The notes: generated from the sequence alone by a model not told the origin. 64,000 bases of DNA from a virus (IMGVR_UViG_3300028048_000071:32001-96000), one strand, 5' to 3'. Positions 47,793-57,212 are shown, numbered from the stretch's first letter. Program-made: numbers and translations.

Positions 47793-50027
47793 ATGGCTAC
47801 AGTTAAGTTTTATAATGATAAAGAAAAAACTCAACAAGTATATCCAGAAATTGACCCAGATGGAAATTATCCTGGTGTCACAGTTGGACTTGCCAATAAC
47901 CTTGTTTCACCAGACGGTATAAATGATATAGATACTTGGCAATATCGTTCAACTGGTGGAGAACTTGATATTACTGATGGATATGCAACATTAAAGAAAC
48001 TTATTGGTACAACTGAATCTTCAACTATAGAAGAAAGTCTAACACATAACTTAATTACAACTGGTGTAACTTCTGTAACTGTTGATACAAGTACATTTAA
48101 AAGTCAAATAAGTACAAGTGGAACATATAATTTTATATATACTCCAACAATTACTTATTCATCTGCTTTAGTATATTCATTAAATAAAAGCACTTTTGCT
48201 AATTATGTAAGTCAAGCAACTGGAACATATACATTTACTTATACTGCTGTTGTTTCACCAGTAGATACATCTAGTGTTATACAAACTTTTACACAATCAA
48301 CATTTGTTAACAAAGTAAATGAAACACCAGATACTTATACATTTACATATAATGGTTCAAATTGGCAATTAGATGGAACAAACGTAACAATGAGTCAATA
48401 TGGTATTACAACAAAAGGAACTGAAACAAGTGGAACAACAATTACTGTTTATTATACAAGTAATTCTTGGTATTACAATAATGCCTCAATTTCTATGAGT
48501 AATTATGGTATTTCAACAACTGGCTCTGAATCTGTTGGAGACACAATTGCTATATCTTATACATCTAATGACTGGATGTTAAATAACACTGCAATAACAC
48601 TTGCTGATTACGGAATTGTAATTACAGGAGGAACTGCAGCAATTGACGATAATATTCAAATAATATTTATTGCTGAACAAGTAGGTGTAATTCAAACTGC
48701 AAATCCAACTGGATTATATAGTGTTGGAATGAACCAATTTAATAAAGATGGTTCTCAAATATTTAGAAATTATACATTAAATTCATCTGGTGGAATAAGT
48801 GCGGCAACTGGATATTATGTAATTTATTTTAAATGTATAGGAGGAGAAACTTATACTATTTATAATGAAACACCTTCATCTACTGTTAGAGTTGGTTATA
48901 GTGCAACTATCCCAACTACATCAAGCACTGTTACATTATTAAGTACAGTTTCATCATCTGAATGGGCTGATGTTCTAGTTAATGACTCATATAAATCACA
49001 CTATTATCCAAATAATCCTGGATATTTAGTTGTTGCGACAAGTGACATTGAAAATTTATGTTGTCATTTAACTTGGGAAGCAGTAAAGGATGATGTATAT
49101 GAATCTTATTTTAATTATACATTACCTATTCCATACACTGATAAAAATGGAGATGTAATAACAACTTATGGTTTAGTAAACTTAGATGATGGTACTCAAT
49201 ATTATGATGAAATAAATTTTGAAGACCTTAAATGGTATAAGAGAACAACTAGAATTGAATATAGTGCTGAAAACTTGGCAACTGTTCAAGCATTAGGTGT
49301 TCCATATTTATATGATGCAAATTGGATTTATTATGGTGTTAATACAGTTGAATATAACTTAGAAGACGTTTCTTATTCATATGAAATATCAAACTATGGT
49401 ACTGAAGAGTTTATTAACTCTGCATTGCCATTAACTGCAACAATATTCTATCAAGAAAACTTAAGAGATAAAATAAGATTCTCTATGGAAGTTATTGATA
49501 ATAAAGTTGAGAAAATTGATAGTGCTTCTACTTATACAAAATATTCAAGTGCAAAAGCATCTTATAACCTAGATAAAGCATTAAGACATATACTTGGTCT
49601 TGATGTAGATACATTCTCAACAAGCAGCACTTATGCTGTTGGTGATTATGTTGTATACGATGGTAAATTGTGGAAATGTACCACTGCCGTAACAAGTGCA
49701 GGAGCTTGGACTGGTAATGGATTATCTGTTAGAAGTAATAATAATGGAATATTACTTGATATGGACACAACTAAATTTTTAAAATTCTTAGATTCAGATA
49801 GACCTGGAAGTCCTTGTGGAATTCCTGAACTTTATGCAAATGATGGCGGTACATACCAAATTCATTTAACATATGCAACAACATCAAACGATTATCACTT
49901 CGCTAATGCTGCTGAATTAGAAGAACAAACTGGTCTTGTAGTAAGTAGTGCAACTGGTGGAGTATCATTTAGTTATAATAGTTCTTCTGCAAATTGGGAA
50001 GAATCATATTTATTTAAAGCAAATTAA
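47793..50027 (+). CDS. large tail fibre/baseplate protein with C-terminal CBM5/12-like module
   Basis: internal W...T/SMS.YGI repeats; STYAVGDYVVYDGKLWKC; last gene before cassette array. Confidence 0.72.
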   Translation: MATVKFYNDKEKTQQVYPEIDPDGNYPGVTVGLANNLVSPDGINDIDTWQYRSTGGELDITDGYATLKKLIGTTESSTIEESLTHNLITTGVTSVTVDTSTFKSQISTSGTYNFIYTPTITYSSALVYSLNKSTFANYVSQATGTYTFTYTAVVSPVDTSSVIQTFTQSTFVNKVNETPDTYTFTYNGSNWQLDGTNVTMSQYGITTKGTETSGTTITVYYTSNSWYYNNASISMSNYGISTTGSESVGDTIAISYTSNDWMLNNTAITLADYGIVITGGTAAIDDNIQIIFIAEQVGVIQTANPTGLYSVGMNQFNKDGSQIFRNYTLNSSGGISAATGYYVIYFKCIGGETYTIYNETPSSTVRVGYSATIPTTSSTVTLLSTVSSSEWADVLVNDSYKSHYYPNNPGYLVVATSDIENLCCHLTWEAVKDDVYESYFNYTLPIPYTDKNGDVITTYGLVNLDDGTQYYDEINFEDLKWYKRTTRIEYSAENLATVQALGVPYLYDANWIYYGVNTVEYNLEDVSYSYEISNYGTEEFINSALPLTATIFYQENLRDKIRFSMEVIDNKVEKIDSASTYTKYSSAKASYNLDKALRHILGLDVDTFSTSSTYAVGDYVVYDGKLWKCTTAVTSAGAWTGNGLSVRSNNNGILLDMDTTKFLKFLDSDRPGSPCGIPELYANDGGTYQIHLTYATTSNDYHFANAAELEEQTGLVVSSATGGVSFSYNSSSANWEESYLFKAN

Positions 50028-50049
50028 TGAATGAAAGGAGAATAATTTT

Positions 50050-50211
50050 ATGTTAGAAATAATTAAATCATTCTTCTCCCCTGTAGGGGGGGGCGAACAA
50101 GCTTCGCTTCACAGAATGGAAATATACAAAGGAAGGAGGATTTGCGTCAAGAGTATAGTAACTCTTCAAGCAATTCCGACTTCAATAGAAAGAGAGGTGA
50201 AGAGTATCTAA
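50050..50211 (+). CDS. leader peptide 1 of cassette-selection bank (53 aa in current G8 state; not in ORF track)
   Basis: GAAAGGAG SD; MLEIIKSFFSPV-GGG-EQ...EVKSI*; one extra G fuses it to the 50142-50486 frame. Confidence 0.8.
   Translation: MLEIIKSFFSPVGGGEQASLHRMEIYKGRRICVKSIVTLQAIPTSIEREVKSI
50086..50093 (+). repeat. poly-G tract 1 (G8), candidate phase-variable switch
   Basis: G8 after codon 12 of leader 1 in an AT-rich genome. Confidence 0.9.
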
Positions 50212-50291
50212 AATCTTCTTATGGAAGATTTGCAGATGGAAGCAACGCTTCTGTCTTAATCTCTTCATCTTTCGCAAGTGAAAATATCGTA

Positions 50292-50300
50292 GGGGGGGGG
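50292..50300 (+). repeat. poly-G tract 2 (G9)
   Basis: GTA-GGGGGGGGG-C in frame in extended leader. Confidence 0.9.
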
Positions 50301-50426
50301 CAGCTACGCTCGAATAATTATTCAGCAAGCAGTCGCTCTTATAAAGGAGGTGAAGGCAATTACGCTAGCTTAATGTCTAGTGATTTTGCCGGAACCGAGA
50401 CAATGTTAAACCCTGACCGCATAGTC

Positions 50427-50435
50427 GGGGGGGGG
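50427..50435 (+). repeat. poly-G tract 3 (G9)
   Basis: GTC-GGGGGGGGG-C in frame in extended leader. Confidence 0.9.
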
Positions 50436-50582
50436 CGAAATCCATTTGGATTCGTCTTCAAAGAAAGGGGGCAAGCCACTATTTAGACTTGCCTCTTATA
50501 CACGAAATGATTTCTCTTTCAAGAAGGGAGGTGCAGGCTTAACAGTCTGTACTCCTTTTTATTATGAAGGAGGTGTGTGTTA

Positions 50583-50966
50583 ATGCAAATTAATAAAGAC
50601 CTTATTATTAGTGGAACTAATATGACTTTAGGCGATACAGCCTATAAAGATATATATTCAACAACTGAAACCAAGACTAATAAGGTTTGGATTGATGGTC
50701 GTACTATATATAGAAAGGTTATTACTGGAAATTTATCTCAGGCACAATGGAATCACGGAATAACTTTTGATACTATTGTTTCTATAGAAGGTGTTTTTAT
50801 AAATACTAATTCTGGTAATACATTTAATATACCTAGTACAAGACCTGATTTTCCTGATTATCAAGTTGGTGTATTTGTGAATAATACATTTATAACTTTA
50901 GAACGTGCTACTGGTGCTCAACGTGCGGATATGAGTTTTTATGTAGTTTTAGAATATGTGAAATAA
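50583..50966 (+). CDS. cassette 1: tail-tip/receptor-binding module
   Basis: MQINKDL N-terminus; YSTTETKTNKVWIDGRTIYRKV fibre-tip domain; own SD AAGGAGGTG. Confidence 0.75.
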   Translation: MQINKDLIISGTNMTLGDTAYKDIYSTTETKTNKVWIDGRTIYRKVITGNLSQAQWNHGITFDTIVSIEGVFINTNSGNTFNIPSTRPDFPDYQVGVFVNNTFITLERATGAQRADMSFYVVLEYVK

Positions 50967-50995
50967 CACACACAACAGGCTAACAGCCTAACATT

Positions 50996-51403
50996 ATGGC
51001 TAAATTTACAATTAATAAAGACTTCTTTGTAGGTGATACAAATTATTCTTTAGAGGATATTCCTTTTGGAGTAGAACCCGAAGTCCCATCTAATCAAAAT
51101 TATTTTAAATTTGGGAATATGATGATTTGTTGGGGTTGGAGAAACGTAACTTTAAACTGGAATGGGAATGGAGCTTATGCTGATTTTAATTTAGCAAACG
51201 ATGGAACTCCATATAAAGATACTGCATATAGAATTGTTGGGAGTTATGCTGGAAGCACAGCTTATTATGCAGGAAACTGGTGCTGGTTTGAAAGCAAAGG
51301 GACGACAAGTGCAAGAGTAAATTGCTGGTGTGAACAAGCTAATAAACCAACATCTATTATTATAGGTTTTATAGCCATTGGAAGATGGCGTGATGCTGAA
51401 TAA
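50996..51403 (+). CDS. cassette 2: gp53-C-like tail-tip module
   Basis: TINKDF N-terminus; YFKFGNMMICWG...FIAIGRW; no local SD. Confidence 0.72.
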   Translation: MAKFTINKDFFVGDTNYSLEDIPFGVEPEVPSNQNYFKFGNMMICWGWRNVTLNWNGNGAYADFNLANDGTPYKDTAYRIVGSYAGSTAYYAGNWCWFESKGTTSARVNCWCEQANKPTSIIIGFIAIGRWRDAE

Positions 51404-51439
51404 AAACATTTCGTGATGAGCAAGCCTTTTGGCGAACTT

Positions 51440-51850
51440 ATGAAGATTAATAAAGATTTAATCGTAGAGGGTACAAATCATACATTAGAAGATATACCTT
51501 TTGATATTGATTTATCTGATGTGTATTCTACAAATGAAACAAAAACAAATAAGGTTTGGATAGATAACAGACCTATATATAGAAGAGTCGTTACCGGTAC
51601 AGTTACCGCTGCAGGTCAAGGACAAACTGTAACCACTATAAGTAATATAAGACAAATCTTGACTATAAGAGGAGTTATGTATTCTAATTATGGTCAATGG
51701 TGGAATATTCCTAATTATCACGGAGAAGCAGGATATGTAAATTCCATATACTGCGATGCAAATGGAAGAGTCAATTTAGGAGTTGGGAACTTTTATAGTG
51801 CCGGTAAACCTTTTATAATTATTTTAGAGTATACAAAATCTACTGACTAA
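51440..51850 (+). CDS. cassette 3: tail-tip module (paralogue of cassette 1)
   Basis: MKINKDL start at 51440; YSTNETKTNKVWIDNRPIYRRV...LEYTK; no local SD. Confidence 0.75.
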   Translation: MKINKDLIVEGTNHTLEDIPFDIDLSDVYSTNETKTNKVWIDNRPIYRRVVTGTVTAAGQGQTVTTISNIRQILTIRGVMYSNYGQWWNIPNYHGEAGYVNSIYCDANGRVNLGVGNFYSAGKPFIIILEYTKSTD

Positions 51851-51886
51851 CATTGTCTGAACGGCAAAAAAAATAATGCCGATTCT

Positions 51887-52309
51887 ATGAAAATAAACAA
51901 AGACTTAATTATTAGTGATACAAATTATACTTTAGGAGATGTTGCTGATTTTATATCAAATAAAATAGAAATTAAAGAGCTTGCTTCTACAACAGGAAGT
52001 GGCGAAAACATTACAATAGATTTGACCGATAGTTATAAAAATTATGACTTTTTATTAGTTCAATGGAGTCCATATTCTTTATATGGGAATATTGATTTTT
52101 ATATTATAGATACTGCTACAATTTTATCTACACAATATGGAAATTATCCTTATGAAACCGGACACCTTCAAACAACATCAGTATGGTCAAATGTCGTATT
52201 TGGCTTTTCATCAACAACTAGATTTATAGCTAAATGTGCAAATACAGGAACTTGGGGAAAAGGTTCTTTTAAAATAATTTCTATTAAAGGAATAAAATTA
52301 CCTCACTAA
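51887..52309 (+). CDS. cassette 4: tail-tip module
   Basis: MKINKDL N-terminus; LTDSYKNYDFLLV...IKGIK; no local SD. Confidence 0.72.
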   Translation: MKINKDLIISDTNYTLGDVADFISNKIEIKELASTTGSGENITIDLTDSYKNYDFLLVQWSPYSLYGNIDFYIIDTATILSTQYGNYPYETGHLQTTSVWSNVVFGFSSTTRFIAKCANTGTWGKGSFKIISIKGIKLPH

Positions 52310-52354
52310 TCACATAATAGAGCGACCGCTCGTAAATGAGCAAAAGCGAATTAA

Positions 52355-52732
52355 ATGATTATAAACACAGATTTAATCTACCCTATCGGTAGTATATATT
52401 TAAGCGTCAACGCAACCAATCCGTCAAAGTATTTTGGCGGAGCTTGGGAGCAAATTACATCAGACGCATATTTAAAGATAGTAACTCAAAATGCTGGTTC
52501 TTTAGGTGGAACCAGTGTAGACCACAAGATACCTATTGAAAGTATGCCTAGTCACGACCACGGTGTGTACGGAGCATTAACTGGAGAAAATAAACCTATT
52601 ACCAATACTGGTAATGATTGGGGAGTTAATACAACACACGGATGGACTACAAATGCCATTTCAAAGACTGGCGGTGGACAGGCTTACTATCCTTATTACT
52701 ATGGCGTTTATGTTTGGAAAAGAACTGCTTAA
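52355..52732 (+). CDS. cassette 5: gp10-C/tail-collar-like module
   Basis: MIINTDL-IYPIGSIY...FGGAWE...MPSHDH...VYVWKRTA; no local SD. Confidence 0.78.
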   Translation: MIINTDLIYPIGSIYLSVNATNPSKYFGGAWEQITSDAYLKIVTQNAGSLGGTSVDHKIPIESMPSHDHGVYGALTGENKPITNTGNDWGVNTTHGWTTNAISKTGGGQAYYPYYYGVYVWKRTA

Positions 52733-52775
52733 ATATACTCTCTTATGATGTTTTGAAGATTTAGATACAAATCTT

Positions 52776-53165
52776 ATGATTATAAATACAAATATGTTGT
52801 TAGCAGCCTATCCTGTAGGTTCGCTATATTTAACAACAAATGAAATAAACCCAGGAACCTTATTTGGTGGAACCTGGGAAAAATTGACTGGGGATGCTTA
52901 TCTTAAAATAGTGACAAGTAATCCTGGTCAATATGATGGTACGTCAGACCAACATAAAATACCTATCAATAGTATGCCTTCTCACAGACACGGTAATAGA
53001 GTTACTTTAAATATGTCTCAAGGTGCTGGTCAAGATAGAAGCCTTGTAGTTGGTGGAGGTCAAGTATGGAATACTGCGGACAATTATCAAAATCAATTTG
53101 TTGGTGGTGGACAACCTTATTATCCATATTATTATGGTATTTATGTTTGGAGACGTACAGCATAA
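52776..53165 (+). CDS. cassette 6: gp10-C/tail-collar-like module
   Basis: MIINTNML-AYPVGSLY...FGGTWE...MPSHRH...WRRTA; no local SD. Confidence 0.78.
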   Translation: MIINTNMLLAAYPVGSLYLTTNEINPGTLFGGTWEKLTGDAYLKIVTSNPGQYDGTSDQHKIPINSMPSHRHGNRVTLNMSQGAGQDRSLVVGGGQVWNTADNYQNQFVGGGQPYYPYYYGIYVWRRTA

Positions 53166-53193
53166 TCGGAATTGCTTAATGCAATAAAACTTT

Positions 53194-53367
53194 ATGAAAA
53201 ATATTTTATTAAATAAAATCCTTCACATCGGGGGGGGGCAGAAATGTCTGCTCTTCACAAGAAAGGAGGGTTGGCTATTATTTTGTAACGTCAACTCTTC
53301 AAGGAATGGAGGTGGCAGACATTTAATATCTGCTATCTCTTGTGGAGGTGTAATCTTATGCAAATAA
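53194..53367 (+). CDS. leader peptide 2 (57 aa in current G9 state; not in ORF track)
   Basis: MKNILLNKILHI-GGG-QK...ILCK*; no local SD; stop lies just inside cassette 7 start. Confidence 0.72.
   Translation: MKNILLNKILHIGGGQKCLLFTRKEGWLLFCNVNSSRNGGGRHLISAISCGGVILCK
53230..53238 (+). repeat. poly-G tract 4 (G9)
   Basis: ATC-GGGGGGGGG-C after codon 12 of leader 2. Confidence 0.9.
53230..53361 (+). promoter_or_regulatory. RBS bank 2: three SD modules
   Basis: AAAGGAGGG 53262, GGAGGTG 53308, GGAGGTG 53344; first two in hairpins without a cassette ATG. Confidence 0.8.
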
Positions 53368-53750
53368 ACGTAGATTTAATATATCCTATAGGTTCTTTAT
53401 ATTTAACAACGTCTACTGTATCACCAGCAGTTTTGTTTGGTGGTACTTGGGAACGCATTAAAGGTAGATGTATTGTAGGTGTAGACGAAAATGACACCGA
53501 CTTTAATACTGTTAGTAAAACCGGCGGTGAAAAAACACATACATTGACTGTGGATGAAATGCCAGCACACAATCACAATATTCAAGGTGCGATGAATGGT
53601 GCTTCTGGAAGTAGTTGGTGTGTTGCTTTAAATAGTGATAGAAGCGTAAACTGGTCTATCACTAATGGGTCACAAAATAAAGGTGGTGGACAAGCACATA
53701 ACAATCTACAACCTTATTACACTGCTTATATATGGCGAAGAACCGCATAA
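53358..53750 (+). CDS. cassette 7: gp10-C/tail-collar-like module
   Basis: MQINVDL-IYPIGSLY...GGEKTHTLT..EMPAHNH...AHNNLQPY...WRRTA; own SD. Confidence 0.8.
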   Translation: MQINVDLIYPIGSLYLTTSTVSPAVLFGGTWERIKGRCIVGVDENDTDFNTVSKTGGEKTHTLTVDEMPAHNHNIQGAMNGASGSSWCVALNSDRSVNWSITNGSQNKGGGQAHNNLQPYYTAYIWRRTA

Positions 53751-53781
53751 GATTACTTAGATATTAAATTGTCGAATAATT

Positions 53782-54159
53782 ATGAAAATAAACTTAGATT
53801 TTATATATCCTGTTGGAAGTATTTATATGAGTGTTAATGCTACAAATCCAGGAATTTTATTTGGAGGAACTTGGACTCAATTAAAAGATAGGTTCTTACT
53901 TGGTGCTGGAAATACATATTCCGCTGGAGATACTGGTGGAGAGGCAACTCATACGTTAACTTATAATGAAATGCCTCAACATAGTCACACATTGTATAAT
54001 GAAAATGCAAGTGGATGGACTTTAAGTAAAGCATCTTTAAAAACAGGAACAAATAAAGGATATTCTGGTAATATCCAAATTGGAGATGCTGGAGGTAATC
54101 AAGCACATAATAATATGCCTCCATATCTAGTAGTCTATATGTGGAAAAGAACTGCATAA
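53782..54159 (+). CDS. cassette 8: gp10-C/tail-collar-like module
   Basis: MKINLDF-IYPVGSIY...GGEATHTLT..EMPQHSH...WKRTA; no local SD. Confidence 0.8.
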   Translation: MKINLDFIYPVGSIYMSVNATNPGILFGGTWTQLKDRFLLGAGNTYSAGDTGGEATHTLTYNEMPQHSHTLYNENASGWTLSKASLKTGTNKGYSGNIQIGDAGGNQAHNNMPPYLVVYMWKRTA

Positions 54160-54205
54160 ATTATTTTGACAAAAAGAGTTGACACTAAAATAATAGTGTT
54201 ATAAT

Positions 54206-54634
54206 ATGAAAATAAATGAAGATTTAATAATTAATGGAACGGATTTAAATTTAAATGATATAGTACAAAAAATATCGGCACTTGAAAAATATCAAGTAGA
54301 ATATAATGCTGATTCAATTACTTTGACATTTACAAATAAATATCCTTGTATAGCAATTACATATATGTCTCACGCAGGATGGGGATTTGGAGGAAATGAA
54401 TGGATTTGGAATGCTGATTTAACTAATTCTGTTCATTTAGGTTATACTAAAGCCTATGTTAATGGTAATGACTTATTATCAAGATTTATGAGTTCTGTGT
54501 CAATTAACTATTGTCCAACTGCGGGAGTAGAACATACAACTGTAAGAACTACAACCAAGGGTAACTCTGGTAATAGCAATGGACAATCAGTATGTGTTAT
54601 TTGTTTACCATTAATAACTAATTCAAAAGAATAA
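54206..54634 (+). CDS. cassette 9: tail-tip module of a different type
   Basis: MKINEDLIINGT N-terminus shared with cassettes 1,3,4; no local SD. Confidence 0.68.
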   Translation: MKINEDLIINGTDLNLNDIVQKISALEKYQVEYNADSITLTFTNKYPCIAITYMSHAGWGFGGNEWIWNADLTNSVHLGYTKAYVNGNDLLSRFMSSVSINYCPTAGVEHTTVRTTTKGNSGNSNGQSVCVICLPLITNSKE

Positions 54635-54971: not shown

Positions 54972-55172
54972 ATGAATAATGATTTTCTAAACGATGATAT
55001 TAAAGATGCTCTTATTGAAAGAGATGGATTTAGACAGCAAGTTGAAGATTTAACTAAAATATTAAAAGAAATTCATCTTTATTTGGTGGGGAGATTTAAT
55101 GAGACTCAAGATACAAAATATTTAGATGACTTAATTAAATTCCAAGAAATGTGTGGTGACTATTATGGATGA
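54972..55172 (+). CDS. hypothetical protein
   Basis: 66 aa, GAGGTG SD. Confidence 0.65.
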   Translation: MNNDFLNDDIKDALIERDGFRQQVEDLTKILKEIHLYLVGRFNETQDTKYLDDLIKFQEMCGDYYG

Positions 55173-56145
55173 TAGTCAATATATTATACAGATAATTAAA
55201 TCTGACAGAGAGTACCCTTATGGGCAATGTATAACACCTAAAGAAATTATTCATAAAGATAGTATTACATCGGAGGATATTATTATTGTAAATGATAAAC
55301 TTAATAAACTTGATGATATTGACTTATATTTAGTAGATTTAAAAGTTAAATTTGCACAAATAAATCCTGAAAAATATTATTTAAGTTACTCTGGAGGAAA
55401 AGATAGTCACTTGCTTTATTGGTTCATTAAAAATTATCTAAAATGCAATGATATTAAAATTATAGGGATAAATACTTATATGGAAAATCCTCAAATCCTA
55501 AAAAGAATTATTAAAAATAGTGATAAGGTTTTACTGCCTACTCTTAAACCATTTGAGATAAAAGAAAAATACGGAATTCCTTGTTTTAGTAAAGAACAAG
55601 ATTTCTATATATATTATTATCAGAATGCACTTAGAAAAGGTAAAAAACCTAGCAAAACAATACAACAGAAAATTGATGGGACTTATGATAAAGGATTTAG
55701 TGGTATTTCTAAAAAGGCAAGAGAATATGTAAAAAGTGGTAATGCTCACAATATAACTCACTTGTGTTGCTATTATTTAAAGAAAAAACCAGCACACGAC
55801 TTTGAAAAAGAAACTGGTTTAAAGCCTATATTGGGAATTAGAAGTGAAGAATCTGCTTTAAGAAAAAGACAGTATACAACTTGCTTTTCTAAAAATGGTA
55901 AATTCACGCCAATACATAATTTAACAGATGACATTTTAGAAGGAATCATATCTAAATATAATATAGAAGTTCCAGAAATATATAATCATATAAAGAGGAC
56001 TGGATGTGAAGGTTGTCCTTATGGTAGTTATTATCACGAAACAGAAAAAGAACTTGAATTAATGACTCCAGCCAAAAAGAAGTTTGTTTGTGAGTTGTTT
56101 AAAGAAAGTTATGAAGTTTTAGGAATTGAGGTGAAGGAAGAATGA
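55165..56145 (+). CDS. PAPS reductase-family (PP-loop, Fe-S) protein
   Basis: SYSGGKDS PP-loop, CCYYLKKKP, GIRSEES..R, RTGCEGCP. Confidence 0.85.
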   Translation: MDDSQYIIQIIKSDREYPYGQCITPKEIIHKDSITSEDIIIVNDKLNKLDDIDLYLVDLKVKFAQINPEKYYLSYSGGKDSHLLYWFIKNYLKCNDIKIIGINTYMENPQILKRIIKNSDKVLLPTLKPFEIKEKYGIPCFSKEQDFYIYYYQNALRKGKKPSKTIQQKIDGTYDKGFSGISKKAREYVKSGNAHNITHLCCYYLKKKPAHDFEKETGLKPILGIRSEESALRKRQYTTCFSKNGKFTPIHNLTDDILEGIISKYNIEVPEIYNHIKRTGCEGCPYGSYYHETEKELELMTPAKKKFVCELFKESYEVLGIEVKEE

Positions 56146-57212
56146 GTCGTAAAAATATTAACTTTGATGTCAATGCAACAGAGAAGCCCGATAAACACGT
56201 TTTAAGGACGATGTGGCGACTTTATCGTCACGGGTATGCAAACCCTAATGCAACATATAAAGACGCTAGAATGACCGCAGAATTGATTGAGACGGCACGT
56301 GAGAAGGTTGCAAAAGCTTTAGGTTGTTATCCGGATGAAATATTCTTTACAAGTGGAGCATCGGAATCAAATAGTTGGATTCAAGCAAATTTTATTTTGA
56401 CTGTTGATGATAGGTCGCATCACTCTTTTGAAAGAATGGTTGGAATTAATCAATATGGTAAAGTAAAGACAATACCTTTAGTTGTTAGTGAAACTGGTGA
56501 ATGGCTCATTAATGAAGTAAAGGCTAATCCAAAACAAGAATACTTCCTTGATATGACACAAGGAATTGGTAAAATGAAAATAAATTTACACGATATGCCA
56601 AATGTAATTTATGCTAGTGCTTCAGGGCATAAATTTGGTGGAATTTTAGGTTGTGGAATACTCTATATAAGACACGATAAACAATCTAAAGTAAGACCAT
56701 TAATTGTTGGAAGTCAAGAAAAAGGAATTAGAGGAGGAACTCAAAATGTTCCGGCGATAGTTTGTTTTGGAGAAGCAATAGAAAAAGCGATGAAAGATAT
56801 TGATAAGAATCAAGATAAAATTAGAAAAGTTACAAATTACATATATACTAAAATAAAAACAGGAGATGCTATCCCGGTGGATGACACGCCGTTATTTATA
56901 TATAAGAGCATACCTGTAGATGTGCGTATGGCTGAGCCATATACAAATGTTATTAATATTACGTTCAATTATCTTACTGCAACGGCTGCGGTACAGATTT
57001 TTGATAAATTAGGTTTCAATATTAGTGCTGGTAGTGCCTGCAATTCGGAATCAGAAAGACCGTCAGAGGCTTATTTAGCAAGTGGGTACACGGAAGATGA
57101 GGCTATGAGGACTATTAGGATTTCAGTAGGTAAAAACAACACTATAAAAGAAGCCAAGAAATTCATAAAGGCTTTAAAAAAGGTTGTCGCACTTTATGAT
57201 GAAGAAGATTAG
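56142..57212 (+). CDS. iscS: cysteine desulfurase (IscS/NifS/DndA-like)
   Basis: YANP, IFFTSGASESN, SGHKFGG (PLP lysine), GGTQNV, SAGSACNS (catalytic Cys), IRISVG. Confidence 0.88.
   Translation: MSRKNINFDVNATEKPDKHVLRTMWRLYRHGYANPNATYKDARMTAELIETAREKVAKALGCYPDEIFFTSGASESNSWIQANFILTVDDRSHHSFERMVGINQYGKVKTIPLVVSETGEWLINEVKANPKQEYFLDMTQGIGKMKINLHDMPNVIYASASGHKFGGILGCGILYIRHDKQSKVRPLIVGSQEKGIRGGTQNVPAIVCFGEAIEKAMKDIDKNQDKIRKVTNYIYTKIKTGDAIPVDDTPLFIYKSIPVDVRMAEPYTNVINITFNYLTATAAVQIFDKLGFNISAGSACNSESERPSEAYLASGYTEDEAMRTIRISVGKNNTIKEAKKFIKALKKVVALYDEED

Follow-up and report, generated by a model that had tools for sequence, protein, structure and literature searches.

A putative one-of-nine choice of tail-fibre tips in a gut phage, set by slippery repeats in leader reading frames and long-range mRNA pairing

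In a gut phage, the choice of a receptor-binding tip appears to be made at random: slippery DNA repeats would determine where a leader reading frame stops, and the stop, through long-range mRNA pairing, would select one distant gene. The locus is quite probably a heritable switch, putatively giving the tail fibre one of nine tips by termination and reinitiation of translation. It lies within the window (the whole stretch of 64,000 nt analysed, IMGVR_UViG_3300028048_000071:32001-96000), and its features are listed in Table 1. No description of this switching mechanism was found in the literature.

The four poly-G tracts are the only G/C runs of at least 6 nt in the 64-kb window and in the whole genome of 132,932 bases. 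All four sit in leader ORFs; none was found inside a cassette in the scan of window and genome. The initial annotation had assigned a stop or read-through to each tract length, and in silico translation from ATG 50050 and ATG 53194, with the tracts set to 8, 9 or 10 G, reproduced every stop position. At tract 1, G8 leads to the stop for cassette 6, G7 or G10 to that for leader 2, and G9 reads on. At tract 2, G10 stops for cassette 5 and G8 for cassette 4, with G9 again reading on. There is exactly one frame that reads through at either of these two tracts. Tract 3 distributes G9, G10 and G8 to cassettes 3, 2 and 1, and tract 4 distributes G9, G8 and G10 to cassettes 7, 8 and 9. A small amendment is that the G9 stop of tract 4 falls 7 nt inside cassette 7 and does not overlap its ATG. 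The assembled window, with tract 1 at G8, is in the 'cassette 6' state. When the three segments of leader 1 were dinucleotide-shuffled, the correct number of open frames together with all stops placed after a Shine-Dalgarno (SD) sequence arose in about 5e-6 of cases.

Table 1. Features of the locus; positions are counted from the first letter of the window
Feature	Position	Strand	Remarks
Tail-fibre-type protein, 744 aa	47793..50027	+	Pfam CBM_5_12; neighbours with tail-fibre repeats
Leader 1 reading frame	50050..50583	+	Own SD ~50033-50040; 7 possible stops
Tract 1, G8	50086..50093	+	Length mod 3: 1, leader 2; 2, cassette 6; 0, read-through
Module for leader 2	50130..50185	+	SD core 50135-39; stop 50156-58, within the loop of the hairpin; tether 50168-79
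Module for cassette 6	50188..50297	+	SD core 50193-97; stop 50209-11; insertion of 48 nt, in frame, 50212-59; anti-SD arm ~50260-73; tether 50281-97 overlapping tract 2
Tract 2, G9	50292..50300	+	Doubles as SD of cassette 5 module
Module for cassette 5	50301..50339	+	SD is tract 2; stop 50315-17; tether 50332-39
Module for cassette 4	50346..50408	+	SD core 50346-50; stop 50371-73; tethers 50384-91, 50398-408
Tract 3, G9	50427..50435	+	Three-way: cassettes 3, 2, 1
Module for cassette 3	50465..50509	+	SD 50467-71; stop 50484-86; tether 50501-09
Module for cassette 2	50522..50582	+	SD 50527-31; stop 50540-42; tether 50573-82 covers spacer of cassette 1 ribosome-binding site
Cassette 1 ribosome-binding site	SD 50569-73, stop 50581-83	+	Stop overlaps ATG; leader 1 end
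Cassette 1, 127 aa	50583..50966	+	Tip family with beta-sandwich; 42% identity with cassette 3
Address of cassette 2	50964..50989	+	SD-less 5′ region
Cassette 2, 135 aa	50996..51403	+	No family match
Address of cassette 3	51407..51433	+	SD-less 5′ region
Cassette 3, 136 aa	51440..51850	+	Predicted beta-sandwich
Address of cassette 4	51848..51880	+	SD-less 5′ region
Cassette 4, 140 aa	51887..52309	+	No family match
Address of cassette 5	52319..52347	+	SD-less 5′ region
Cassette 5, 125 aa	52355..52732	+	Pfam Gp10_C
Address of cassette 6	52738..52768	+	SD-less 5′ region
Cassette 6, 129 aa	52776..53165	+	Gp10_C; branch set by assembled G8
Address of leader 2	53166..53184	+	No own SD
Leader 2	53194..53367	+	Tract 4 and modules for cassettes 9, 8, 7
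Tract 4, G9	53230..53238	+	Within leader 2; branches are cassettes 7, 8, 9
Module for cassette 9	SD 53265-69, stop 53286-88	+	In leader 2
Module for cassette 8	SD 53308-12, stop 53324-26	+	In leader 2
Module for cassette 7	SD 53344-48, stop 53365-67	+	In leader 2
Cassette 7, 130 aa	53358..53750	+	Gp10_C / PHROG tail-fibre families
Address of cassette 8	53745..53773	+	Tether pairs with cassette 7 start region
Cassette 8, 125 aa	53782..54159	+	Gp10_C
Address of cassette 9	54174..54197	+	SD-less 5′ region
Cassette 9, 142 aa	54206..54634	+	Weak MSP1 jelly-roll match below cut-off

Tract lengths differ between assemblies. Across contigs (not reads, with homopolymer assembly error possible for G-runs) they range over G6-G11, ATAC x3-17 and AGAC x11-19; in contigs of relatives, tract 1 spans G7-G11 (close relatives) and tract 3 G8-G11. 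As in contingency loci, repeat length differs between near-identical genomes at the contig level, and different assemblies occupy different leaves of the tree. In the probable source run, one contig has tract 2 at G10, as against G9 in the window. Contigs of that run break at the tracts.

An SD-like sequence had been described shortly before each stop, and this holds for all 10 stops: in each case a 9-mer (-11.7 to -15.2 kcal/mol) begins 14-25 nt ahead of the stop. Every stop sits in a hairpin that buries an SD, 7-20 nt past the SD core and in or beside the loop, which is the fixed-stop arrangement of repY/repZ. The same bases can alternatively pair with the 5′ region of a distant target. The hairpin locks, and the tether arm that each target has to itself on the 3′ side of the stop, are computed features that go beyond the initial annotation. 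Local-fold z-scores of the module hairpins range from -2.0 to -6.1 for the window and from -1.3 to -7.3 over six loci. By pairwise folding, 16 of 50 modules (about a third) are not clearly shut by default, the cassette 9 module of the window among them (probability of a paired SD, 0.10). Past the ribosome footprint, the tether gave -14.9 as against -9.2. In an ensemble model of a reduced construct, all SDs are paired at rest (0.54-1.0) and activating helices do not exceed 0.15. When a 30S occupies a single SD, the cognate activating helix alone forms for four of the six targets; no such helix forms for cassettes 4 and 5.

The eight remote targets lack an SD of their own (SD strength 0 to -3.5 kcal/mol). 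For leader 1, the stop-to-cassette mapping first proposed has the lowest energy of all 720 possible assignments (-140 against a mean of -85 kcal/mol), and for leader 2 it is the better of two. A cruder matrix of shorter sequence windows misassigned several modules, those for cassettes 4 and 2 among them, which longer windows resolve. Cognate duplexes are at -22.5 kcal/mol against -10.9 for non-cognate ones of the same locus. For 45 of 48 targets, no module of the locus pairs better than the cognate one, the targets being partly hand-defined and the pairs of one locus (L071) assigned after inspection. The predicted split ribosome-binding site has about 4 nt between SD and helix and about 7 nt between helix and AUG, and its total spacing is a functional 7-15 nt in 46 of 50 predicted pairs (computed medians 4 + 7). 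Covariation is apparent in one 20-member module family, with 85% paired against 74% after re-dealing of partners and 40 compensatory cells against 21 +/- 4.5 for re-dealt partners (0/5000). A sigma70-like promoter match (11/12) lies within the cassette 9 address.

One stop per cassette was the correspondence named beforehand as the test in homologous loci, and it persists there despite sequence divergence: stops and targets both number 2n+1 for n repeats in 22 of 23 complete leader units, the six seven-branch leaders representing two lineages only. Exceptions are L003, with five stops, four cassettes and poorly matching addresses, and L036, whose cassette 3 branch stops at a TGA that has no SD close by. 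At the tract position, related gut phages carry repeat units of G, ATCA, ATAC, AGAC, AT, GA or ACAA. Addresses of remote slots are 97-100% identical, and the proteins in most such slots 25-57% identical (L039/L043/L042). Slot 7 is taken by a cassette in L039 and by a second leader in L055, the addresses in front being 93% identical. Cassette proteins are exchanged between slots among relatives, while the addresses keep their place. The 2n+1 rule, the preference of targets for their cognate modules, the covariation and the tract-length differences between assemblies support, at the level of sequence, the initial interpretation that tract length would select a stop and with it one predicted distant partner.

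Nine cassettes had been claimed, and nine ORFs of 125-142 aa are present, each opening with an M-x-I-N-x-D/N-like motif; the start of cassette 3 is corrected to 51440. Cassettes 5-8 pass Pfam Gp10_C and match PHROG tail families, in line with tip homology, and the Pfam/PHROG comparison gave no family assignment for cassettes 2, 4 and 9. The top structural matches of cassette 3 are the tail-fibre tips of R2 pyocin and AP22 gp53, and are weak (Z 6.5-6.6; rmsd 3.5 and 91 aligned at Z 6.6). In the relative P0073 a Gp10_C tip is fused to the fibre at its C-terminal end, and cassette 8 is 59% identical to this tip over 59 aa. From the families and the weak fold matches, the cassettes may bind a receptor of the uncultured host. 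A complex model of three fibre C-termini with three copies of cassette 3 scores 0.84 against 0.00 for the best control; among solved complexes 58 of 80 attain the mark, among mismatched pairs 2 of 110. The runs share at least 91% of contacts, with a partner pLDDT of at least 92. The modelled interface comprises residues 1-4, 6-7 and 10 of cassette 3, the N-terminal motif common to all nine, and the predicted docking site on the 744-aa fibre is its C-terminal CBM5/12-like domain and last strand (residues 617-628 and 738-744). With a shared docking motif and one fibre site, the nine tips would compete.

In the proposed mechanism, slipped-strand indels in the G-tracts, at a rate that we infer, would set the leader frame; since tract length sets this frame, there would be one stop per genome. 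At rest, leader SDs would be shut in local hairpins, and the SD-less targets pre-docked via computed tether helices 3′ of the stops. A ribosome reading through a module would open its hairpin yet strip its tether, and modules past the stop would remain shut. An open hairpin and a held tether would therefore coincide at the terminating module only. The released 5′ arm could then pair with target sequence immediately ahead of the AUG, forming a split ribosome-binding site of the computed geometry, where the ribosome would reinitiate up to 3 kb away, as T4 genes 25/38 and the rep coupling of IncI/IncB suggest. Ordinary local coupling would serve cassettes 1 and 7. One branch would start leader 2, adding a three-way choice and giving 6 + 3 = 9 outcomes. 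The chosen tip would dock on the fibre C-terminus by the common motif, as modelled for cassette 3, and a tip swap would probably change the host receptor.

The same RNA architecture could instead give a cumulative or leaky output, every module crossed firing up to the stop and tract length setting a graded mixture. Elongating ribosomes melt hairpins too, and the modules that are marginal by default would suit such a scheme. It is nevertheless unlikely: a separate stop for each branch, close behind the SD core and kept despite divergence, would be superfluous, some tethers cover the SD or start of the next module, and in the ensemble model the modules lying upstream lose their tethers on read-through. 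Runs of G8-9 are able to slip in transcription and in decoding, and the tracts might thus serve transcriptional slippage or ribosomal frameshifting, with all nine tips made in set ratios in each infected cell and no heritable choice. Length variation is known from contigs, which do not separate DNA from RNA variation. However, repeats of 2 or 4 bases, with as many as 19 units, also occur at the same position, and their variable DNA copy number fits replication slippage. G-lengths among DNA assemblies cover all three residue classes mod 3, and a mere setting of tip ratios is distinctly improbable.

Leader-cassette fusions made by ribosomal bypassing, splicing or RNA recombination, with the long-range helices as guides, are very unlikely, although these helices place the stop region beside the cassette start and the first base of the stop is paired in 20 of 20 members of the module family. 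Against fusion, every target has kept an AUG whose distance to the helix is fixed, the SD is retained in the module, residue 1 of the cassette is used in the modelled interface, and Rfam gave no intron or ribozyme match at the locus; contigs, one RNA run included, hold no supported leader-cassette joint, which as contig evidence is weak. Rearrangement of the shufflon or deletion type, bringing silent cassettes to an expressed first slot with the leader structures incidental, would agree with the exchange of proteins between slots, with the tyrosine recombinase encoded in the genome and with L057, where a single cassette lies directly behind the leader SD. The nearest recombinase found is ~76 kb off, though, the cassettes are co-oriented and not flanked by near-perfect inverted repeats, and no rearranged joint is seen at the depth of the source contigs, joints of other strains aside. 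The 2n+1 rule and covariation would also go unexplained, and rearrangement is most improbable. Equally hard to credit is transcription attenuation, in which the hairpins would be terminators and the leader frame an on/off control of the entire array, on the model of pil1 of Streptococcus gallolyticus, which shares the repeat-in-leader design (PMC3894217). The cassette 2 module does resemble an intrinsic terminator (50530-53 plus a T-run), but the + strand of leader 1 has two terminator-like matches, both in the overlapping cassette 2/1 region, and leader 2 none. Because all cassettes lie downstream of all modules, attenuation could not pick among them, and it leaves the SD-less targets and specific complementarity unexplained.

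Termination-reinitiation with one tip chosen has partial precedents. Mu G, the P1 C segment, the R64 shufflon and diversity-generating retroelements have DNA rearranged or rewritten by a dedicated enzyme; the outcome proposed here, mutually exclusive or variable receptor-binding tips, is similar, but no such enzyme or sites adjoin this locus. In ribosome shunting of plant pararetroviruses, a short ORF terminates at the foot of a stem and translation resumes beyond it, and calicivirus termination-reinitiation tethers the post-termination ribosome via rRNA pairing. Unlike the present locus, these systems are eukaryotic, with a single fixed target and no mutational switch. In Fletchervirus the tracts lie within the regulated gene and switch independently on or off. 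Such poly-G tracts are described for receptor-binding genes of Campylobacter Fletchervirus (Sorensen et al. 2021, as cited in PMC10877375). In these and in phage contingency loci (10.1101/2025.10.21.683753), slippage-prone repeats in phage DNA diversify progeny, host recognition included. Rather than on/off repeats in a regulated gene or promoter, the tracts here are in non-product leaders and are proposed to enforce a choice among genes.

In the leader-peptide phase variation of pil1 (Danne et al. 2014, PMC3894217), transcription attenuation puts a single operon under weak or strong control. There as here, a simple repeat in a leader ORF shifts the ribosome stop and thereby an RNA structure controlling downstream surface-structure genes; here translation initiation would be controlled, with 3^k-type branches and each stop addressing another distant gene. 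In IncI-alpha ColIb-P9 repY/repZ and IncB pMU720 repBA, termination at a leader stop permits long-range pairing and reinitiation on the next gene, as proposed here; they have one adjacent target, on a scale of ~100 nt, whose own SD is masked and whose pseudoknot is under antisense RNA control (PMC4705826). At the present locus the leader would donate the SD, through helices over 0.4-3 kb, to up to seven targets per leader, by repeat-set choice; remote targets are SD-less, and no antisense RNA match was found in Rfam. In T4 genes 25 and 38 a helix between SD and AUG likewise restores functional spacing (11 nt for the split site of gene 25, a median of 11 nt here), but that helix is a local constitutive hairpin, whereas here it would close a kilobase loop and rival the SD-locking hairpin (PMC3014915).

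The locus is probably a modular, mRNA-encoded multiplexer that works without an enzyme: repeat length would select one stop, and the stop an SD-less distant gene or a further leader. As stops are wired by portable hairpin-plus-address pairs, trees of any depth could be built, and trees with 3, 5, 7 and 9 outputs and differing topologies are found across loci. Such multiplexers would occur widely among gut phages, most of them with links to uncultured Bacilli, and would give each phage genome strictly one receptor-binding tip.

The four G-tracts are real, being the sole runs of six or more G or C in the whole genome. When each tract was set between 8 and 10 G and translated in silico, all ten stops proposed in the initial annotation were reproduced, each preceded by a strong Shine-Dalgarno (SD) sequence, and tracts 1 and 2 were each followed by one open read-through frame and no more. 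None of the eight remote targets has an SD of its own, and the chance of obtaining such a tree from shuffled leader segments is about 5 per million. Stop-codon recoding was considered because two of the stops are TAG; it was rejected, as the genome shows no sign of recoding and homologues swap TAG and TAA at these stops. The insertion in the cassette-6 module is a multiple of three and leaves intact the read-through frame as well as the arm that locks the SD.

Coordinates of the switch locus, its surroundings and features of related loci (L handles)
Feature	Location	Remark
744-aa fibre, insert	window 49717-49990 (residues about 641-733)	about 90-100 residues between CBM5/12-like domain and last strand
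Switch locus	window 50050-54634	leader 1, cassettes 1-6, leader 2, cassettes 7-9
Insertion in cassette-6 module	window 50212-50259	48 nt relative to L036/L048; folds as two small hairpins
Sigma70-like match (11/12)	window 54166-54194	within cassette-9 address
Perfect sigma70-type promoter	window 54707-35	just beyond locus end
PAPS-reductase-like and NifS-like (aminotransferase class V) genes	window 55153-57212	directly downstream of locus
Tyrosine recombinase (Phage_integrase)	genome 5514-6545 (L096:1515-2546), minus strand	distant from locus
Three-leader locus	L089:3690-7880	rabbit-gut Bacilli bin; (AT)10 repeats in each leader
Lone tip gene	L057:9274-9732	close relative without switch
Parallel module-to-target order	L071:8138-9157; L076:5409-6453	
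Recurrent small hairpin	L036:5768; L047:10704 and 11609; L084:473 and 2034	GGGATG...TGTCC or CGTCC
G9 leader with SD-hairpin modules	L052:2400-2671	after distant (27%) fibre homologue; more G+C-rich contig, cut by contig end

Repeat lengths vary among relatives, with G-tracts of G6-G11, ATAC repeats of 3-17 units and AGAC repeats of 11-19 units. As assembled, the window stands at cassette 6, three related loci at cassette 1 (L036, L048, L039), two at cassette 2 (L037, L043), two at cassette 3 (L038, L055) and one at leader 2 and then cassette 7 (L047). Tract 2, G9 in the window, is G10 in one contig from the run that is probably its source, and another strain differs from the window by +2 G at tract 1, +1 G at tract 2 and -2 G at tract 4; all these lengths were read from contigs, in which assembly error at G-runs is possible. 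In three runs, contigs break off at tracts. An RNA run (X2) holds short contigs covering parts of the locus, and such contigs are no proof of transcription.

Arms in the 5′ region of each remote target are complementary to one leader module, a segment with an SD and a stop. When all module-target pairs were scored, the proposed stop-to-cassette map (leader 2 and cassettes 6, 5, 4, 3 and 2, then cassettes 9 and 8) had the lowest energy among the 720 assignments possible in leader 1 and, in leader 2, beat its one alternative. The computed local fold of each module is a hairpin that buries the SD and has the stop inside or next to its loop. In the alternative computed fold the SD is free, and a helix starts about 4 nt later and ends about 7 nt upstream of the target AUG. 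Across 13 loci, total unpaired SD-to-AUG spacing is predicted to be 7-15 nt for 46 of the 50 pairs; that of the split site of T4 gene 25 is 11 nt (PMC3014915). The tether, a module arm 3′ of the stop that pairs with the target, lies mostly outside the stretch that a stop-bound ribosome would cover, and its pairing is specific (-14.9 versus -9.2 kcal/mol); several tethers mask the SD or start of the next module. In an ensemble model of a reduced construct, leader 1 plus six addresses (the SD-less 5′ regions), the resting state has every SD paired, tethers docked in five of six cases and activating helices essentially absent. With the leader opened up to one SD, upstream tethers are lost and the cognate activating helix alone forms for four of the six targets. 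Because the model assumes equilibrium and its linkers are artificial, the result speaks to plausibility only. Rfam gave no match close to a gathering score.

Homologues were found via the 744-aa fibre and via the module motif. Loss of the one-stop-per-target correspondence would have counted against the initial annotation; the homologous loci keep it, with stops and targets both numbering 2n+1 for n repeats in 22 of the 23 leader units that are complete. Three-output trees occur in many small prophages, a five-output tree in L058, seven-output trees in L039 and L043, and relayed trees in L064 (3+3) and in the window, L036, L047 and L055 (7+3). In L089, leader 1 relays to leaders 2 and 3. The leader repeats are G-runs, ATCA, AC, ATAC, AGAC, GA, AT, AGCA and ACAA. 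All six seven-branch leaders, which represent only two lineages, rank 1 of 720, and mean duplex energy over 12 loci is -22.5 kcal/mol for cognate pairs versus -10.9 kcal/mol for other pairs of the same locus. Modules and addresses also covary: one 20-member module family, uncorrected for relatedness, has 40 compensatory cells against 21 +/- 4.5 after partner re-dealing, and one of its columns holds four pair types.

In one lineage, remote-slot addresses are 97-100% identical and most payload proteins there are 25-57% identical. One and the same address stands before a cassette in L039 and before the second leader in L055. By these sequence comparisons, addresses are a property of slots, not of proteins. 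Two close relatives without the switch (L059, L062) have cassette arrays with their own SDs. The lone tip gene of L057 directly follows the SD that starts the leader elsewhere, an arrangement that is either ancestral or the product of a deletion that collapsed the locus. There are exceptions: L003 has five stops, four cassettes and address mismatches, and the stop of the cassette-3 branch in L036 has no SD nearby. Module-to-target order looks parallel, not nested, at the three-way loci L071, L076 and, by eye only, L093; nested pairing as a general rule was dropped, as the first two do not fit, and the helices therefore need not all coexist. Close relatives carry the recurrent small hairpin as an insertion in their leaders and address regions; the window's leader lacks it.

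The L052 leader suggests a wider range for the switch. A search with cassette 1 found 33 loci, none with G-tract leaders; L003/L004 and L011 use other repeats. Among the best 40 INPHARED cultured-phage matches of cassette 7 (777 further records lay outside these), no isolate carried an array, all 40 being single-copy streptococcal prophage genes. One of three loci with an ACAA-repeat pattern was a chance match, as were L086 and L095 among 26 new matches to a hairpin pattern.

Gp10_C tip domains make up cassettes 5-8, which also match PHROG tail-fibre families, and in one relative a Gp10_C-type domain is fused to the fibre end. Cassette 2 gave no significant alignment with the fused tip of P0096. 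Most cassette pairs share 19-29% identity (37-53% within the Gp10_C group), and an N-terminal motif is common to all. Cassette 3 is predicted to be a beta-sandwich (pLDDT 90) whose best structural matches, all weak, are pyocin and phage fibre tips; Foldseek gave no match at E <= 0.001, and the Atlas yielded nothing beyond clusters without names and one Gp53-like_C lead at 40%. At most loci a similar CBM5/12-like domain or terminal strand closes the gene that precedes the leader. In a 3+3 complex model, cassette 3 contacts fibre residues 617-628 and 738-744 through its residues 1-4, 6-7 and 10, scoring 0.84 (best control 0.00) with between-run agreement of at least 91% and partner pLDDT of at least 92; the score mark was attained by 58 of 80 solved complexes and 2 of 110 mismatched pairs. 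This model of one cassette supports, without showing, a single fibre docking site for interchangeable tips. The fibre insert is missing from many homologues (about 655 aa) that retain the switch (L040).

The virus record has 132,932 bases, 28% G+C and 19 tRNA genes, and its closest occurrences are in gut metagenomes of cattle and sheep. The switch lies 3′ of tail-fibre genes. The sigma70-like match in the cassette-9 address could yield a near-leaderless transcript; L047 lacks its -35 box. The genes downstream are possibly a sulfur-modification pair. TGA is apparently Trp in L058 and L061/L062, relatives with a homologous fibre, and L058 retains the switch with TAA and TAG stops only. The host is probably Bacilli/Mollicutes-like, since genome matches to the shared leader motif lie mostly in uncultured Bacilli bins and TGA is apparently translated as Trp in two relatives.

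The whole is probably best read as follows. Replication slippage at a repeat would fix one stop; termination there would open one hairpin with the tether still holding; strand exchange would then build a split ribosome-binding site, and the ribosome would reinitiate on that one target only. The locus anatomy, its conservation, the covariation and the differences in tract length are direct observations, and the structures and docking come from computation; the slippage rate, reinitiation, exclusivity and host-range effect are what we infer for this switch. Cumulative or leaky output is unlikely, and non-heritable slippage yielding mixtures is slightly more so; as both share the same architecture, the locus is very probably a repeat-controlled translational selector as such. 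Bypass or splicing is very unlikely, and attenuation and DNA rearrangement are each highly improbable.

Phase variation by a repeat within a leader resembles pil1 (PMC3894217), termination-triggered long-range pairing with reinitiation resembles repY/repZ (PMC4705826), and split ribosome-binding sites are known from T4 (PMC3014915); phage contingency loci offer precedent for parts (Sorensen 2021, as cited in PMC10877375). The window locus lacks a defining feature of each of the classical contingency-gene, repY/repZ, T4 split-site and shufflon families; as to the terminator of pil1, one module looks like a terminator and leader 2 has none. A choice among several genes by stop position was not found described in the literature searched, subscription journals being largely uncovered, nor did the search find a paper on the leaders' repeat peptides.

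Because module/address pairs are short and, inside one locus, mostly orthogonal, reporters can test the claim directly, and such pairs could act as a translational multiplexer for synthetic biology. The switch would account for the unusual repeat peptides (runs of G, TNKQ, SINQ, DRQT, HTYI) that stand ahead of SD-less tip genes in many gut-phage tail regions. If the reading is true, bacterial ribosomes would reinitiate kilobases downstream at a start site built from two distant RNA segments and addressed by their own termination point, and phages would have, in addition to DNA inversion and mutagenesis by retroelements, another way of switching between mutually exclusive host ranges, by polymerase slippage and mRNA folding alone.
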